The position numbers were made by a program, and so were the translations under genes. A DNA stretch of 64,000 nucleotides from Vulcanimicrobiota bacterium (GTDB lineage: Bacteria > Vulcanimicrobiota > Xenobia > Xenobiales > JADMJV01). Shown piece after piece: positions 49,224-54,689 of this stretch (the first letter of the stretch is position 1; every line of letters starts with the position of its first letter). The stretch spans positions 266,412 to 330,411 of the forward strand of contig JAHBVR010000009.1 in assembly GCA_019637395.1 (NCBI GenBank), read 5' to 3'. The notes below the pieces were generated by a model. That model searched no databases. It saw only the letters and a list, made by a program, of their open reading frames with translations, and was not told where the DNA came from.

Positions 49224-51059
49224 CTAGACCAGGCCGAGCACTTCTACATCGGCAAAGTTGTCCATGACGCGCCGGCTGCGCGCCTGCTTCAAGCACTCCA
49301 GCGCGCGGGCCAGCGGCACCGTCTGCTGTTCCTTGACGCAGTAGCGCCTCCAGGTCACTTCTTGCTGTTCCTGCTCACGTTCACCCACGATAAAGATGTT
49401 GGGCGTTTTGGAGGTGGCGGCGTTGCGGATCTTCTTGTTGAATGAATCGCTGCCCAGATCGGCCTCGGCCCGGAAGCCCAATTTGAAGAGCTCCTGAGCT
49501 ACCTTTTGGGCGTAGTCCCCGAAGTTCTCGACATGAACCGGCACCACCACTACCTGGCGGGGAGCCATCCAGGTGGGGAAAGCCCCTTTGAAATGCTCGA
49601 TCAGGAAGGCCAGGAAGCGTTCGTGGGTTCCCAGCGGGGCGCGATGGATGCAGTAAGGAACGTGTTCCTGTCCGTCGGTTCCCACGTAGGTCAGGTTAAA
49701 GCGGGCCGGTACGGCAAAATCCAACTGATTGGTGGAGGCGGTTTCCTCGCGGCCCACCACGTTGCGCACCTGGAAGTCCACTTTGGGCCCGTAGAAGGCG
49801 GCTTCGTCCTCGCCAATCTGATAGTCAATGCCAATCTCGTCGAGAATGCCCTTGATGACGGCTTCCGATTTGATCCAGTCTTCCGGCATGTTGACGTATT
49901 TGTCTCCCAGCCGCTCGGGGGTGTGGGTGGACAGGCGCATCCAGAAATGGGAGAGACGGAACATTTCGTAGTAGCGCTTGTGCAGGTCGAGCACTTTGGT
50001 GAATTCGTCCTTGAGCTGTTCGGGGGTGCAGTAGATGTGGGCGTCGTTCATGCACATGCCGCGCACCCGCAGCAGACCGGCCAGCGAGCCGGAACCCTCG
50101 TAACGATAGACCTGCCCATACTCGGCCAGGCGAATCGGCATCTCACGGTAAGAGCGCGGCCGGTTGCCGAAAATCAGGTGGTGAAACGGGCAGTTCATGG
50201 GCTTGAGGTAATATTCGCGGTTCTCGTCGACGACCATGGCCGGGAACATGCCTTCTTTATAGTGGGCCAGGTGGCCCGAGGTTTCAAAGAGCTTACCGTC
50301 GGTCACATGAGGCGTGGCCACCCGCTGGTAGCCATCGGCGAATTCCCACTCCTTGGCCAGATTCTCGAGCTCATCGCGCAGCACGGTGCCGTTGGGCATC
50401 CACAAGGGCAAGCCGGGTCCGACATGATCGGAGATCATAAAGATCTCCAGCTCTTTGCCCAACTTGCGGTGGTCGTATTTTTTAGCTTCCTCGCGCAGGC
50501 GCACGAACTCTTTGAGTTCGGCCTTGGTGTCGAAGGCCAGGCCGTAGATGCGGGTCAACTGTTCGCGCTTCTCATCGCCGCGCCAGTAGGCTCCGGCCAG
50601 GCTATCGAGTTGGAAACAGTCGGCGGGAATCTGGCCGGTATGTTCCACATGCGGTCCGGCGCACATGTCCTCGAAAGGACCATTACGGTAGAAGCTGAGG
50701 CTTTCGCCACGCGAAGCCAGGTCCTGGCAATATTCCGCTTTCAGATTCTCGCCCTGCTCGTTGAGCATAGCCACCGCCTCGGCGGCCGTCATTTCGCGGC
50801 GTTCGAAAGGCTGCTTCTCGTTGATGATCTTGCGCATCTCTTTTTCGATAGCGCCAAAATCCTCATCGCTGATCGGCTCGGCAAAGTGGAAATCGTAATA
50901 AAACCCGTTTTCCACCGGTGGGCCGAAGCCCAACCTGGTGCCGGGCCGCACTTTCTGCACCGCCTGCGCCAAAATGTGGGCCAGCGAGTGACGCCGCTTG
51001 TAGAGCGGGTCGTTCTCCTTGCCCTCAAAATCCAGCCCCGCATACGCCTTCTTGGCCAT
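49224..51059 (-). CDS. thrS: Threonine--tRNA ligase, short form lacking N-terminal TGS domain
   Basis: RRHSLAHIL, FYYDF, class II motifs, RDHRKLGKELEIF, 611 aa. Confidence 0.9.
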   Translation of the reverse strand: MAKKAYAGLDFEGKENDPLYKRRHSLAHILAQAVQKVRPGTRLGFGPPVENGFYYDFHFAEPISDEDFGAIEKEMRKIINEKQPFERREMTAAEAVAMLNEQGENLKAEYCQDLASRGESLSFYRNGPFEDMCAGPHVEHTGQIPADCFQLDSLAGAYWRGDEKREQLTRIYGLAFDTKAELKEFVRLREEAKKYDHRKLGKELEIFMISDHVGPGLPLWMPNGTVLRDELENLAKEWEFADGYQRVATPHVTDGKLFETSGHLAHYKEGMFPAMVVDENREYYLKPMNCPFHHLIFGNRPRSYREMPIRLAEYGQVYRYEGSGSLAGLLRVRGMCMNDAHIYCTPEQLKDEFTKVLDLHKRYYEMFRLSHFWMRLSTHTPERLGDKYVNMPEDWIKSEAVIKGILDEIGIDYQIGEDEAAFYGPKVDFQVRNVVGREETASTNQLDFAVPARFNLTYVGTDGQEHVPYCIHRAPLGTHERFLAFLIEHFKGAFPTWMAPRQVVVVPVHVENFGDYAQKVAQELFKLGFRAEADLGSDSFNKKIRNAATSKTPNIFIVGEREQEQQEVTWRRYCVKEQQTVPLARALECLKQARSRRVMDNFADVEVLGLV

Positions 51060-51061
51060 GA

Positions 51062-51373
51062 TTAGTCCTCTTCGATTGGTTGATTGAGCTTGTAGTAGCG
51101 GTCCGAGTCCATCATGGATGGATAGTGGACCAGCGCCATATTGATCAACACTTCATACTCCAGCAGAATTTTCGTCAAGGAGGCGTGCTGCTCGTCGTTC
51201 AGCTGGGGTTCGAGTTTCTCGAGCATGCCGATGATACAGTTCTCCTGCTCCAGGATCTCGGCCGCCGTGATCTGCCCGTCGGCGATGTAGCGCTGCCAAC
51301 GAGGATGCCCTTCGATAAAGTCGTCGCGCAACAGGTCGATGCCCTGCCCGTCAAACCAAGGATCTCTAGCCAT
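51062..51373 (-). CDS. Hypothetical 103-aa protein immediately upstream of thrS
   Basis: ORF ends 3 nt before the thrS start. Acidic. No family recognised. Confidence 0.4.
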   Translation of the reverse strand: MARDPWFDGQGIDLLRDDFIEGHPRWQRYIADGQITAAEILEQENCIIGMLEKLEPQLNDEQHASLTKILLEYEVLINMALVHYPSMMDSDRYYKLNQPIEED

Positions 51374-52070
51374 GAGAACTTCCCTCCTTCACAGAGGGGG
51401 GGAAGTTCTGCGCCAGGGAAGGAGGGCCTGCCTGCAGCCGAAAGTCATGCGAGTGAGACCCACGCTGCGCATCACCTTGATGGCCCTGCTGGCAGCCTTG
51501 TCAGGAGCTCTTGGACTGGTGACGCCCACCATCGCCGGTAGCCGCCTGCTCAAGTTCAATGGCTTCCCCATCGTACTTTCCGGCTTCTTGCTGGGGCCTA
51601 TCGGTGGTTTCTGGTGCGGTGCCCTGGCGGACATCGTGGCTTTTATGCTCAAACCCGGCGGCGCCTACAACCCGTTTTTTACAGTGACTTCGGGCCTTAC
51701 CGGCATGATGCCGGTTCTACTCTATCAGGAGCTGGCGCCGCGACGAGAGGGCAAGCTGCTGCTCGATCCTTGGATGTTACTGGTGTCTATAGGTCTGGCA
51801 CAGGTTGGGATCAAGGTTCTCCTGGTGTCGCCTATGCTTGCAGTCTGGTCCGGGCTGCCGGTAAAGGCTCTGGCGCTTCACGCAACTGTGGAGCAGGTCG
51901 TTCACACTCCCCTTTATGCTTACGCGGTCTGGGTGGTGGTGCGGCGCGTCGTGCTTCGAAGTCGGCCTGAGTCCCAGGCCAGCGCTCTACCCTGGGTAGA
52001 CGAGCTGAAACAAATGCCAGAACTTCAATTCGATCCGGGGATAAGCCCCACGGGATCCCAGGAGTTATGA
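51339..52070 (+). CDS. Polytopic membrane protein, possibly ECF-transporter S-component-like (probable start near 51447, MRVRPTL)
   Basis: Small about-200-aa five-to-six-helix membrane protein with Gly-rich helices (FPIVLSGFLLGPIGGFWCGALADIVAF). Confidence 0.45.
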   Translation: MPCPSNQGSLAMRTSLLHRGGEVLRQGRRACLQPKVMRVRPTLRITLMALLAALSGALGLVTPTIAGSRLLKFNGFPIVLSGFLLGPIGGFWCGALADIVAFMLKPGGAYNPFFTVTSGLTGMMPVLLYQELAPRREGKLLLDPWMLLVSIGLAQVGIKVLLVSPMLAVWSGLPVKALALHATVEQVVHTPLYAYAVWVVVRRVVLRSRPESQASALPWVDELKQMPELQFDPGISPTGSQEL

Positions 52071-52075
52071 TTCCC
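51783..52075. repeat. Copy 1 of about 295-bp segmental duplication (3' end of the membrane-protein gene)
   Basis: About 80% identical to 52196..52494 (e.g. tctataggtctggcacaggttgggatcaaggttctcctggtgtcgcc vs tctatagatctgggacaggcggggctaagggttcctctggtgtcgcc). Confidence 0.8.
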
Positions 52076-52195
52076 TACTTGAGGGGTGTAGGGTGGCTGG
52101 CTCCGGGTCAGATTGGACAAACTGACCGTAGTATAGGTAACTCCCATCGCTTTCTCCCTGATGAATTCAAGACGAGCATATCACGGCGCACCCCG

Positions 52196-52494
52196 CGCGA
52201 TCTATAGATCTGGGACAGGCGGGGCTAAGGGTTCCTCTGGTGTCGCCTTGGCTTGCAGTCTGATGCGGGCTCCCGGTAGAGGCTTGGGCGCTTCCCGCAG
52301 TTGTGGAGCAGGCCGCTCATACTCCTCCCTGTCCTCTCTGGGCTTACGCGGTCTGGGTGGTGCTGCGGCGCGTCGCGCTTCGAGCTCGGCCGGAGTCTCG
52401 CGCAAGCGCTCTACGCTGGGCAGACGACGTAAACCAAAAGCCAGAGCCTCCAGACGATCCAGGGATAAGCCCTTCAGACCCCCGGGAGTGGTAA
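52196..52494. repeat. Copy 2 of the segmental duplication. Encodes a C-terminal gene fragment on the + strand and overlaps the 3' tail of the URO-D-like gene on the - strand
   Basis: Plus-strand ORF 52303..52494 translates to HTPPCPLWAYAVWVVLRRVALRARPESRASAL, paralogous to the C-terminus of the 51339..52070 protein. Confidence 0.8.
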
Positions 52495-53347
52495 GGACCA
52501 GGGGACGGGTGGTGATCTCTCCCAGGTGCTGGCGCAGACTGCCGCGCAGCCAGGCGGGAGAAGCCTCGCTCCAGCCCTCGGGGTCCAGACCGCCCCAAAC
52601 AAAGCCGGACCAGCGCATGGCGCCGCGAGCCAGGTTGGGGCCGGCCGCCACCGGCCAGCCCAGGCCCTGGCAGGGCAGCTTGAGCTCTTCCCAAAAGATC
52701 CGCCGTCCCAGGAACTGGACCACGCTCCAGGCCGGTTTGCAGCCCTCGATCAAGCTGAGCAGCGAGGCCAACAGCTTCTCTTTATAGACGGCCGGCTCCA
52801 TGAACTCGTGGCTGGCGGCCGTCTCTTCCAAGATGATGCCCTGCACGCCCGCTTCCACCGCCAGTTTGATGAAGCTGGCCAGCGACCTGGCCAGATTCTC
52901 GATGGCCTGCTGGAAAAAGCCGCCGCCCTCGCGCAAAGCTTCCAGAGTGAGCTTATGCCCGGCCAGTTTTTGCAGTTGCAGAAACGGGCTGGGCACCACC
53001 GCCACCACCGGGCGCTTGCCAAAGTAAGCCCGGCAGGTGGTGCGAATGGCGTCCTGCTGCTGACTCCAGGCTCCGTGGCGGCCGTGCACCGGCCCGATCT
53101 TGGCCAGATCCGAGGGGCGATCCAGGGAGACGTTGGAATCCAGCGTATAACCAAAACAAGCAGGCACAACCACGACATCCGTCTCAGTGCGTTCCACAAA
53201 GGCCTGCACCGCCTGAGCCAGCACGTCGCCGCCCAGAAGTTCCAGATCGTAACTGGGATAGAGACAGAAAGCCGGCCGGTCGACCGGCTCCCCCTTGAGA
53301 ACTCGCTCGATTCGATCCAGTGGTTTTAAATTGGGGACTCTGTCCAC
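52202..53347 (-). CDS. Uroporphyrinogen-decarboxylase (URO-D/MtaA) family protein with Pro/Arg-rich C-terminal tail
   Basis: N-terminal LKGEPVDRPAF and TIM-barrel-like body. The last roughly 95 aa are low-complexity and encoded antisense to duplication copy 2. Confidence 0.45.
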   Translation of the reverse strand: MDRVPNLKPLDRIERVLKGEPVDRPAFCLYPSYDLELLGGDVLAQAVQAFVERTETDVVVVPACFGYTLDSNVSLDRPSDLAKIGPVHGRHGAWSQQQDAIRTTCRAYFGKRPVVAVVPSPFLQLQKLAGHKLTLEALREGGGFFQQAIENLARSLASFIKLAVEAGVQGIILEETAASHEFMEPAVYKEKLLASLLSLIEGCKPAWSVVQFLGRRIFWEELKLPCQGLGWPVAAGPNLARGAMRWSGFVWGGLDPEGWSEASPAWLRGSLRQHLGEITTRPLVLTTPGGLKGLSLDRLEALAFGLRRLPSVERLRETPAELEARRAAAPPRPRKPREDREEYERPAPQLREAPKPLPGARIRLQAKATPEEPLAPPVPDL

Positions 53348-53348
53348 C

Positions 53349-54689
53349 TTAGCCGGCTCCGTGGCACTTCTTGAACTTTTTGCCGCTACCGCAAGGGCAG
53401 GGCTCGTTGCGGCCCAGTTTCTGGCTCAGGTATGGGTTGGTGCAGTCCAGCGACTGCTTGAAAGCCGGGTTGTTAGGCTCTTTGCTCACGGCCCGGCGGA
53501 AGGCGTGGCCGGCGGCCTGAGCATCGCCGTTGACCTTGAAGAGCCAGCCCAGCACGGCATAAGGATAACCCTGCTCTTTGTCCAGCTCGATGGCTTTCTG
53601 AGCCAGTTGCTGAGCTTCTTCCTTGTGGCCGCGCAGGTGGGCCACAATGGCGCTATTCAAGAAAGTGACGCCCAACTTGTGGCCATCCTCGGCCACCACG
53701 AAGCGGCCGACTTCTTTCGCTTCCGGGGGCAGCGCACAGACCAGCACCGCCTTGCCCACGGGATACTGCGCAAAACAGGCGGCCGCTTTATCCAGATACT
53801 CCTGGGCCGAATCCAACTGGTTATCGAGGATGTCGATGACCCCCAGGTTCAGGTAGAGCAGGCCGATATTGTCGTCTTCGACCTTACGGGCCTGGCAGTC
53901 TTCCACGCCCTTTTTCAGATTCTGGCGGGCCGGTTCCAGTTGCTCTTCCATCAACTGCAGGAAACCCAGGTTGTTGAAGACCAGGAAGTGGTTGGCGTCA
54001 TTCTGAGCCAGATGGGCTTCGTAGTCGGCGATGGCGGCGGCCCGGCCTTTGTGCCGGTAGATGAGCAAGGACAGGTTGGTGACGCAGGTGGCCACTCCTT
54101 CGGTGTCACCCTGTTCGGAGAACATCTTGCGAGCGGTCGCGAAGTCCTGGGCCGCCTGGGTGGTGTGGCCAAGATCGATGCGCACCCCGCCCAGGTTACG
54201 GAAGCCACGGGCGATACCGGCCTGATCTTCCAATCTGCTGTAGAGCTTATGAGCGCGCTCATAGAGCGCCTCGCCCTGGCGGAATTCGCCGCGCTGGTGA
54301 TGAGCACCGCCCAATTCTTCGAGGTTGCGGGCCTGCGCGCCCAAATCGCCGGCGCCTTCGGCCAGGCGCAAACTACGGCTCAGAAAATTGATGGCTTCAG
54401 CCGGCTTCTCCAGGCCGTTGAGGCAGACGCCCATCTGATAGAGCATTTCCTCCTGCTCACCCGGAGTGGCCTCCCCCGATTCGGCCCGGATGGCCTGGAG
54501 CATGTCCCAGGCGCCGCGGAAATCTTTCTGCATGATGTGAGCCTTGGAGGCCTGAAGTTTTTCGCCCAGGGGGGAGAGGGTCGCTTGCTCGGACATTGGT
54601 CTATTCCTATCTCGTAATGCTCCTCGCGTTTTGCCCAAACCATGCGGGATTAAACGTCCCCAGGGGAGCTTTCGCCGGGGCGCGAACAC
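53349..54689 (-). CDS. TPR-repeat protein with C-terminal SEC-C zinc-binding motif
   Basis: Multiple TPRs. C-terminus NEPCPCGSGKKFKKCHG. Confidence 0.7.
   Translation of the reverse strand: MFAPRRKLPWGRLIPHGLGKTRGALRDRNRPMSEQATLSPLGEKLQASKAHIMQKDFRGAWDMLQAIRAESGEATPGEQEEMLYQMGVCLNGLEKPAEAINFLSRSLRLAEGAGDLGAQARNLEELGGAHHQRGEFRQGEALYERAHKLYSRLEDQAGIARGFRNLGGVRIDLGHTTQAAQDFATARKMFSEQGDTEGVATCVTNLSLLIYRHKGRAAAIADYEAHLAQNDANHFLVFNNLGFLQLMEEQLEPARQNLKKGVEDCQARKVEDDNIGLLYLNLGVIDILDNQLDSAQEYLDKAAACFAQYPVGKAVLVCALPPEAKEVGRFVVAEDGHKLGVTFLNSAIVAHLRGHKEEAQQLAQKAIELDKEQGYPYAVLGWLFKVNGDAQAAGHAFRRAVSKEPNNPAFKQSLDCTNPYLSQKLGRNEPCPCGSGKKFKKCHGAG

Follow-up and report, generated by a model that had tools for sequence, protein, structure and literature searches.

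A direct repeat in the genome of a Vulcanimicrobiota bacterium (GCA_019637395.1, contig JAHBVR010000009.1) appears to record how two genes that once shared their 3' ends on opposite strands came apart. The repeat lies in the 64,000-nucleotide stretch from 266,412 to 330,411 of that contig (hereafter, the window; positions are counted from its first letter), where the gene for a FolT-family ECF transporter S-component converges on a URO-D/MtaA-like gene. We consider it very likely that an ancestral antisense overlap of ~290 bp, with both frames protein-coding, was un-overlapped by duplication. Specifically, in the ancestor of the clade, the two convergent genes would have shared about 285-305 bp in antisense, and in the lineage of the window, this shared segment would have been duplicated in direct orientation. 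The upstream copy (copy 1) would then have stayed with FolT and the downstream one (copy 2) with the URO-D-like gene, such that the genes no longer overlap, after which each copy would have evolved under one frame and started to lose the other. The features on which this argument turns are given below; throughout, L- and P-numbers denote the related loci, contigs, and proteins that were compared with the window's own locus.

51447..52070, + strand: FolT-family ECF transporter S-component gene, 207 aa from the ATG at 51447
51786..52070, + strand: copy 1 of the former overlap, serving FolT only (transmembrane helices TM5-TM6, C-terminal tail, and TGA stop)
52071..52201, no strand: spacer of 131 nt between the two stop codons
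52202..52494, - strand: copy 2 of the former overlap, serving the URO-D-like gene only (codons 285-381 and TAG stop)
52261..52263, + strand: in-frame TGA in the relic FolT frame of copy 2 (translation ..SPWLAV*CGLPV..)
52333..52341 (approximate to a few nt), no strand: 9-bp insertion in copy 2, placed by MAFFT alignment
52202..53347, - strand: URO-D/MtaA-like gene, 381 aa, PF01208

A repeat search of the window returned two direct-repeat blocks, 51786-51910/52201-52325 (82% identity) and 51908-52065/52332-52489 (79%), with offsets of 415 and 424 and a single 9-bp indel between them in a MAFFT alignment; these are therefore one repeat, broken by that indel. With blastn, copy 1 (51786-52070) and copy 2 (52201-52494) aligned at 79.4% identity over 272 columns (E = 6e-67), and no third copy was found within the 64-kb window. 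The locus thus holds two neighbouring copies in direct orientation, similar beyond chance, at 79-82% identity over ~285 bp with a period of 415/424. This self-alignment agrees with a first-pass annotation of the same DNA, which had proposed a duplication of ~295 bp at ~80% identity, with copy 1 inside a membrane-transporter gene and copy 2 supplying, in antisense, the Pro/Arg-rich end (roughly the last 95 codons in that annotation, 97 by the coordinates given above) of a URO-D-family open reading frame (ORF). The same annotation held that copy 2 keeps an open frame on the + strand, which is so for the last 63 codons, an ORF in themselves, but not for the frame as a whole, given the TGA at 52261-52263 and the 9-bp insertion. 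This insertion, seen otherwise only in L004 and L023, gives the URO-D tail three extra residues (PRKPREDREEYERP) and falls in the FolT TM6 motif PLYAYA, which it would disrupt. Every locus compared derives from metagenome assemblies, and a repeat of this kind might be suspected of being an assembly or binning artefact, for example, a mis-joined strain variant. However, the 1.8-2.4 kb spanning the repeat were 100% identical in four independent assemblies (L017-L020, from different sequencing runs and including one NCBI metagenome-assembled genome [MAG]), which argues that the repeat is not an assembly artefact. Moreover, the copies are merely 80% identical, with differences that are specific to coding frames, and related duplicated forms were seen in several assemblies too, leaving an artefact with a practically negligible probability.

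Both genes belong to well-defined families. The FolT gene matched TIGR04518 at 68.6 bits, against a cutoff of 60, over profile positions 6-159 of 163, and also matched PF07155/PF12822; its orthologues scored 52.9-69.8 bits, and by these profile matches, it belongs to the folate family of ECF S-components. It is called at 205-207 aa on identical contigs, and its start may be a few codons off, as a longer ORF from 51339 enters the divergent upstream gene. Its body upstream of the overlap showed a ratio of nonsynonymous to synonymous differences per site (pN/pS) of 0.07-0.41 between lineages. The URO-D-like ORF scored 37.4 bits on PF01208, above the curated cutoff of 23.9, and its AlphaFold model, built with 19 homologues as input (predicted local distance difference test score [pLDDT], 83.6), forms a URO-D-type TIM barrel to about residue 328. 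The best Foldseek matches were uroporphyrinogen decarboxylases and the Methanosarcina mazei methyltransferase 4ay7/4ay8 (TM-scores of 0.62-0.72, E ~1e-13), placing the protein in the URO-D superfamily. The NCBIfam models for the MtaA/CmuA subfamilies scored 25-32 bits against cutoffs of 235-244, and so no specific enzyme activity can be assigned to it.

The order of genes around the pair is common to the related loci (E1 dehydrogenase, a ~290-aa gene, TPR/SEC-C, URO-D-like, FolT, a 103-aa gene, and thrS), of which scans of genome contigs and of metagenome contigs gave five and three, respectively. On most of the related contigs, the annotation goes from the URO-D-like gene straight to the 103-aa gene, with no transporter gene called in between. 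A listing of their ORFs revealed an intact FolT-family ORF of 204-212 aa on the opposite strand, entering the end of the URO-D-like gene. Measured from stop to stop, the overlap was 284 bp in L002, L007/L011, L012, and L022, 293 bp in L001, and 305 bp in L014 and L015. In all, at least seven related Eremiobacterota lineages are overlapped, with both frames open in all seven for which DNA was available, while for the P0009 and P0019 contigs, the overlapped state is implied by gene spacing. The gene calls omit the FolT gene (L001, 4797-5435; L002, 4914-5531; L007, 3902-4519; all on the - strand), a consequence of its ~290-bp overlap with the URO-D-like gene.

The overlap in these relatives joins parts of two folded proteins. 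The FolT ORFs of the overlapped genomes scored 52.9-66.4 bits on TIGR04518, in an alignment spanning residues 6-164, and ~54 residues of the domain (TM5-6) lie inside the overlap. Near nucleotide 126-130 of the shared segment, the conserved core of one gene meets that of the other. Each C-terminal extension is read in antisense to its partner's core, with the disordered URO-D tail opposite FolT TM5-6 and the cytoplasmic tail of FolT opposite the last beta-alpha unit of URO-D. The phase, read from coordinates and verified by translation, pairs codon positions as pos1:pos1, pos2:pos3, and pos3:pos2. Rogozin et al. (2002, Trends Genet 18:228) are reported to have found that the phase in which the second codon position of one gene faces the third of the other (123:132) is over-represented among conserved convergent overlaps, and this is the phase seen here. 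In the window, a gap of 131 bp separates the stop codons, and the two genes do not share DNA as they do in the relatives. The window is thus a resolved derivative of an overlapping pair, not a member of the overlap class; the option of a long antisense overlap, which the first-pass annotation had also raised, describes the ancestral state in relatives but not the window.

The URO-D tail is older than the duplication. When the URO-D-like protein was searched against 5.8 billion proteins, 24 close homologues, at 57-89% identity and 360-398 aa in length, and one distant match were returned, and an identical protein is annotated from a Candidatus Eremiobacteraeota MAG. All 24 have the long C-terminal tail, including those in genomes without the duplication, and in an alignment of 19 homologues, the tail was among the best-conserved parts of the protein (LRRLPSxERLRETPAxxEARRAAxPPRPRK...GARTRLHAK..PEEPLSPP). 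The duplication therefore did not create the tail, contrary to the earlier proposal, under which the 3' end of the transporter gene had been copied downstream and the URO-D ORF then read through it, making the tail young, chimeric, and nonfunctional. Consistent with that proposal, the last ~50 residues are Pro/Arg-rich and predicted to be disordered, and the tail is the antisense of hydrophobic transmembrane codons. Yet, beyond its conservation where the duplication is absent, the separated tail evolves at a pN/pS of 0.05-0.19, and its disordered distal half by itself changes by 2/4/14, 2/3/23, and 4/6/32 at the first, second, and third URO-D codon positions of the duplicated genomes. A young chimeric tail is, thus, extremely improbable. 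The related claim, that the tail lies outside the URO-D fold, is apt for the residues from ~331 to 381 (pLDDT below 55; predicted disordered and Pro/Arg/Glu-rich), but not for residues 285-328, where the modelled fold runs well into copy 2 with helices at 296-307, 312-315, and 319-328. Because the genes of the relatives overlap by 284-305 bp and are separated here by the duplication, the causal direction is the opposite of the one first proposed: the duplication separated genes that already overlapped. One further locus, L013 (3004-4155, + strand), retains the conserved tail without any FolT gene opposite it. This contig is labelled "uncultured Burkholderiales" while carrying an Eremiobacterota-type pair of TPR/SEC-C and URO-D-like genes, its downstream synteny differs from that of the other loci, and it may be mis-binned.

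The two-copy state was found at several loci, which differ at the junction between the stops:

Window: 131-nt spacer between the stops
L004: junction of -6 nt, the stops sharing the palindrome CTATAG
L005/L006/L010: stops sharing CTAG; the junction of L005 is -4 nt
L023: spacer of +4 nt
GCA_041443045.1 contig (P0032; P0006 type): two copies, with a 385-aa URO-D-like gene

In a neighbour-joining tree of ThrRS, the TPR/SEC-C protein, the 103-aa protein, and the URO-D body, L001, L012, and L015 fell outside the clade of the window, L004, L005, and L007, with L002 next (98-100% bootstrap). As these outgroups are all overlapped, the overlap is ancestral and the two-copy state derived. The reverse polarity, in which separate copies were ancestral and overlaps arose repeatedly as recombination collapsed the copies, may draw on the fact that tandem repeats do collapse through homologous recombination, and on the position of the overlapped L022 as sister to the duplicated L005 in the URO-D body tree, which is readable as a reversion. 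Against this stand the outgroups (L015/L014, L012, and L001), all of them overlapped, and the stops that every copy 1 has in the URO-D frame. Further, a collapse would need to yield a chimera functional in both frames from copies that are 21-41% diverged. Finally, changes polarised against the overlapped genomes fall cleanly at the third positions of one frame per copy, as expected if a single shared segment was ancestral. We therefore regard the reverse polarity as very unlikely, and an ancestral overlap as the state from which the window derives.

To follow the fate of the two frames, differences between copy 1 and copy 2 were assigned to one copy by using the overlapped genomes as outgroups, and were counted by codon position (URO-D pos1 / URO-D pos2, which is FolT pos3 / URO-D pos3, which is FolT pos2):

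Window: copy 1, 4/16/2; copy 2, 2/3/16; Fisher p = 1e-5
L004: copy 1, 16/23/1; copy 2, 1/1/23; Fisher p = 4e-11
L005: copy 1, 10/40/5; copy 2, 2/2/22; Fisher p = 3e-11

The changes are mirror images, those in copy 1 falling at FolT third positions and those in copy 2 at URO-D third positions. By the Nei-Gojobori method, copy 2 of the duplicated genomes had a pN/pS of 0.05-0.19 in the URO-D frame (0.10-0.19 for the window) and an apparent pN/pS above 2 in the FolT frame (2.2-5 for the window), while copy 1 in the FolT frame had 0.5-0.6 in the window and 0.14-0.28 in L004/L005. Degeneration was complementary. In the window, copy 1 keeps FolT intact and has two stops in the URO-D frame (one to four across the window, L004, and L005), whereas copy 2 keeps the URO-D frame intact, its FolT frame being interrupted by one stop and carrying the 9-bp insertion; in L004 and L005, the aligned part of copy 2 contains no FolT-frame stop. 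After release, the disordered distal half of the URO-D tail bears a strong coding signature (the counts by codon position given above), and the freed C-terminal tail of FolT evolves almost neutrally, with TM5-6 tightly constrained. In the overlapped genomes, purifying selection of an ordinary kind acts on the body of each gene. At the freed third positions, GC content also rose after separation: for URO-D, from 0.44-0.55 to 0.55-0.71, and for FolT, from 0.55-0.61 to 0.62-0.85.

Where the genes still overlap, the URO-D frame dominates (9/6/30 for L002-L007 and 2/0/14 for L014-L015), and when the same pairs are compared, its synonymous differences per site (pS) fall from 0.51-0.67 in the gene body to 0.21-0.37 inside the overlap, a depression that shows constraint from the second frame. 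It could be asked whether the overlapped genomes hold a single coding frame, the other being a shadow ORF that GC-rich codon usage leaves free of stops. GC-rich genomes have many long antisense ORFs, most of them unselected (bioRxiv 10.1101/724807), the window contains a 519-aa shadow ORF opposite thrS, and gene callers passed over FolT in the overlapped genomes. For the FolT frame, this explanation is opposed by an ORF that is a recognisable family member, with a profile match reaching 54 residues into the overlap and a body under purifying selection; for the URO-D frame, by an ORF that has no earlier stop and a tail that, taken alone, is still under strong purifying selection. Moreover, neither frame is interrupted in any of the seven overlapped lineages with DNA, and once released, copy 1 gains one to four URO-D-frame stops in each duplicated genome, and copy 2 of the window one in the FolT frame. 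A shadow ORF is, on this evidence, highly improbable. Since the changes are mirror images and each copy loses the frame of the other, both frames of the antisense overlap are, judging by these substitution patterns, under purifying selection as protein.

The simplest mechanism would be an in-situ tandem duplication, and the benefit may have been a release from mutual constraint or from convergent transcription; both proteins are presumably expressed. Several observations weigh against this account of the locus. First, inside the overlap, the apparent pN/pS of the FolT frame is at least 1 in the overlapped genomes; such values are expected in this phase when the other frame dominates, and alone they are not proof of constraint on FolT. 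Second, by Smith-Waterman comparison with shuffled sequences, the 131-nt spacer has no significant similarity to the gene bodies, to the copies, or to the junctions of the relatives, so the original duplication unit cannot be reconstructed from it, and almost no spacer is present in L004 or L023, both of them closely related. Third, the trees are mosaic: the URO-D body tree pairs the duplicated L005 with the overlapped L022 at 100% bootstrap, and a FolT "type A" is common to the window, L004, L023, L002, and L022 (the FolT body tree is unreliable, the start of L015 having been mis-extracted). Finally, pS between the window and L004 is 0.19 in the FolT body versus 0.52 in the URO-D body, which indicates recombination within the locus. 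With this contrast and the mosaic signal, a simple single in-situ event does not fit all of the data. The mosaic signal, which extends over ~3 kb, also points to frequent homologous recombination among these uncultured lineages.

The same observations raise the possibility that the second copy arrived with a FolT-bearing fragment of a diverged relative, through homology-facilitated illegitimate recombination, in which case the copies would have been diverged from the outset. In a four-point test, copy 1 of the window went with L002 and copy 2 with L007 (sums of 86 versus 104 and 106), in line with such an arrival, as are the pS contrast between the window and L004 and the mosaicism between the URO-D body and the FolT type. 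Within each genome, however, both copies are of the same type (A/A in the window, L004, and L023; B/B in L005), as expected under in-situ duplication, and the patchy similarity is also explicable by later allelic recombination of FolT alone. We consider the arrival of a diverged fragment unlikely and retain in-situ duplication as the simplest reading. The junctions of L004, L005, and L023 are consistent with a unit approximately equal to the overlap region or with later deletion. As for the spacer, it is flanked by CTA on both sides (TGATTCC-CTA-...-CTA-TAG), and right after the FolT stop, the window and L023 share TGATT(C/T)CCTA, L023 having only TGATTTC-CTA there; together, these suggest that the spacer may be a later insertion of ~128 nt with a 3-bp target duplication. 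There is no other copy of the spacer in the window, and promoter scans, terminator scans, and RNA folding of both its strands gave results no better than those for shuffled sequences. A riboswitch or small RNA was considered and rejected, an Rfam scan of the whole window having returned no matches.

Whether the overlap was resolved once or several times was approached by comparing trees of the flanking genes, the URO-D body, the FolT body, and the overlap copies, the signals of which conflict. The copy-2 sequences of the window, L004, and L005 cluster at 98% bootstrap, and all resolved loci share a His-to-Pro change in the URO-D tail (PRKH to PRKP), which together favour one origin. Of the six derived sites that the copy-2 sequences have in common, five became G or C at third positions freed by the separation, making convergence plausible, and the sister placement of L005 and L022 in the URO-D body tree, the same-type copies within each genome, and the differing junctions all speak against one origin. 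Tentatively, then, we entertain, while leaning somewhat against it, the idea that the dual-coding segment was long-lived and was resolved by duplication more than once, escape from adaptive conflict between the two genes having been recurrently selected. The candidate separate events are those of type A (the window, L004, and L023), of type B (L005), and possibly of the P0006/L016 lineage. If so, the His-to-Pro change opposite PLYAYA and the enrichment of GC at third positions would have followed each time, having been forbidden by the overlap before. L016 (1-2095) is a 2-kb metagenome contig of the P0006/P0032 type, in which the URO-D tail ends after PRPRKPREPFE and the FolT ORF has no stop of its own and runs 40 codons further. 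An independent partial duplication was considered for this contig and dropped after comparison with P0006 and P0032, and the contig more closely resembles a resolved locus with a deletion across its junction, or else an assembly chimera.

The neighbouring genes mentioned above as synteny anchors are as follows:

51062..51373, - strand: 103-aa hypothetical gene, conserved synteny anchor between the FolT gene and thrS
53349..54689, - strand: TPR/SEC-C-motif protein gene, directly upstream of and co-directional with the URO-D-like gene, synteny anchor

The 103-aa ORF has no Pfam or NCBIfam match. It lies 2 nt upstream of thrS and is 84-97% conserved at every related locus, on account of which it is likely a real small protein, possibly co-translated. 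A single nucleotide separates the stop of the TPR/SEC-C gene (53349-53351) from the GTG with which the URO-D-like gene starts (53347), a tight spacing that is kept in relatives, and the two are probably one operon; the role of the conserved disordered tail may be linked to the TPR protein. The 519-aa ORF opposite thrS (49506-51065, + strand) is a typical GC-rich shadow ORF and offers a contrast to the dual-coding segment.

The locus is reminiscent of several known systems, without matching any of them. The closest are the conserved convergent overlapping pairs (Palleja et al. 2008, PMC2478687), in which two protein-coding genes on opposite strands also share their 3' ends, and for which the likely origin, here too, is 3' extension after the loss of a stop codon. 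In our case, both partners belong to well-defined domain families, with part of each domain inside the overlap, and the window differs in showing the resolved state rather than the overlap. Experimentally supported antiparallel overlaps, namely, adm/dmdR1 in Streptomyces coelicolor, cosA/iiv14 in Pseudomonas fluorescens, and the nog1, laoB, and asa class in Escherichia coli (bioRxiv 10.1101/724807, PMC5810103), resemble it in being long bacterial antisense dual coding, with one frame per region probably overprinted. Those, however, involve a young orphan ORF in an old gene, whereas in the present pair, each of two old genes extends into the 3' end of the other, and the support for the adm/dmdR1 type is experimental, whereas here it is evolutionary, through natural un-overlapping. 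Viral overlapping genes, which the virus literature treats as adaptive conflict (Pavesi 2021, PMC8227390), share the mutual constraint between frames, the asymmetric evolution, and an overprinted frame that encodes disordered sequence of odd composition; here, the genome is a cellular one with no evident pressure to be compact, the overlapping frames lie on opposite strands instead of the same one, and the conflict is resolved. Finally, as in subfunctionalisation and escape from adaptive conflict, a segment with two jobs was duplicated, each copy keeping one and degenerating for the other, except that the "functions" are opposite-strand reading frames and the unit is a gene end of ~290 bp, not a whole gene.

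Thus, the ingredients are known, and what is unusual is the length and age of the overlap, its two domain families, and its resolution by duplication and complementary frame loss. In surveys of prokaryotic overlaps, none of the co-directional or divergent kind was judged credible above 60 bp. Antiparallel ORFs of at least 180 bp were found to be rarely under selection (bioRxiv 10.1101/724807), and most long antisense overlaps have been put down to annotation errors or shadow ORFs, although some convergent ones may be real, in close relatives only (PMC2478687; bioRxiv 10.1101/724807). The studies of overlap turnover consulted here deal with shifting starts and stops or with the loss of a gene, duplication going unmentioned (PMC4161906, PMC3843671), and a full-text literature search found no bacterial example of overlap loss by duplication.

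The existence of long antisense coding overlaps in bacteria being disputed, this locus offers unusually clean evolutionary evidence for an old, real case of 284-305 bp, because the duplicated segment acts as a natural control in which one frame is kept and the other decays. It documents duplication with complementary degeneration as a route by which overlaps are lost, and would constitute a rare natural test that both frames of a long bacterial antisense overlap encode protein. As closely related genomes show both the overlapped and the separated state, the mutual constraint becomes directly measurable, with synonymous rates approximately halved, one frame dominant, and codon usage recovering after release. 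That the FolT gene is uncalled in most of the overlapped contigs examined indicates that such pairs are systematically under-annotated, with real genes in long antisense overlaps being silently dropped from annotations and protein databases. If recurrent resolution were borne out, the locus would offer several natural trials, run in parallel, of what antisense dual coding costs a bacterium.

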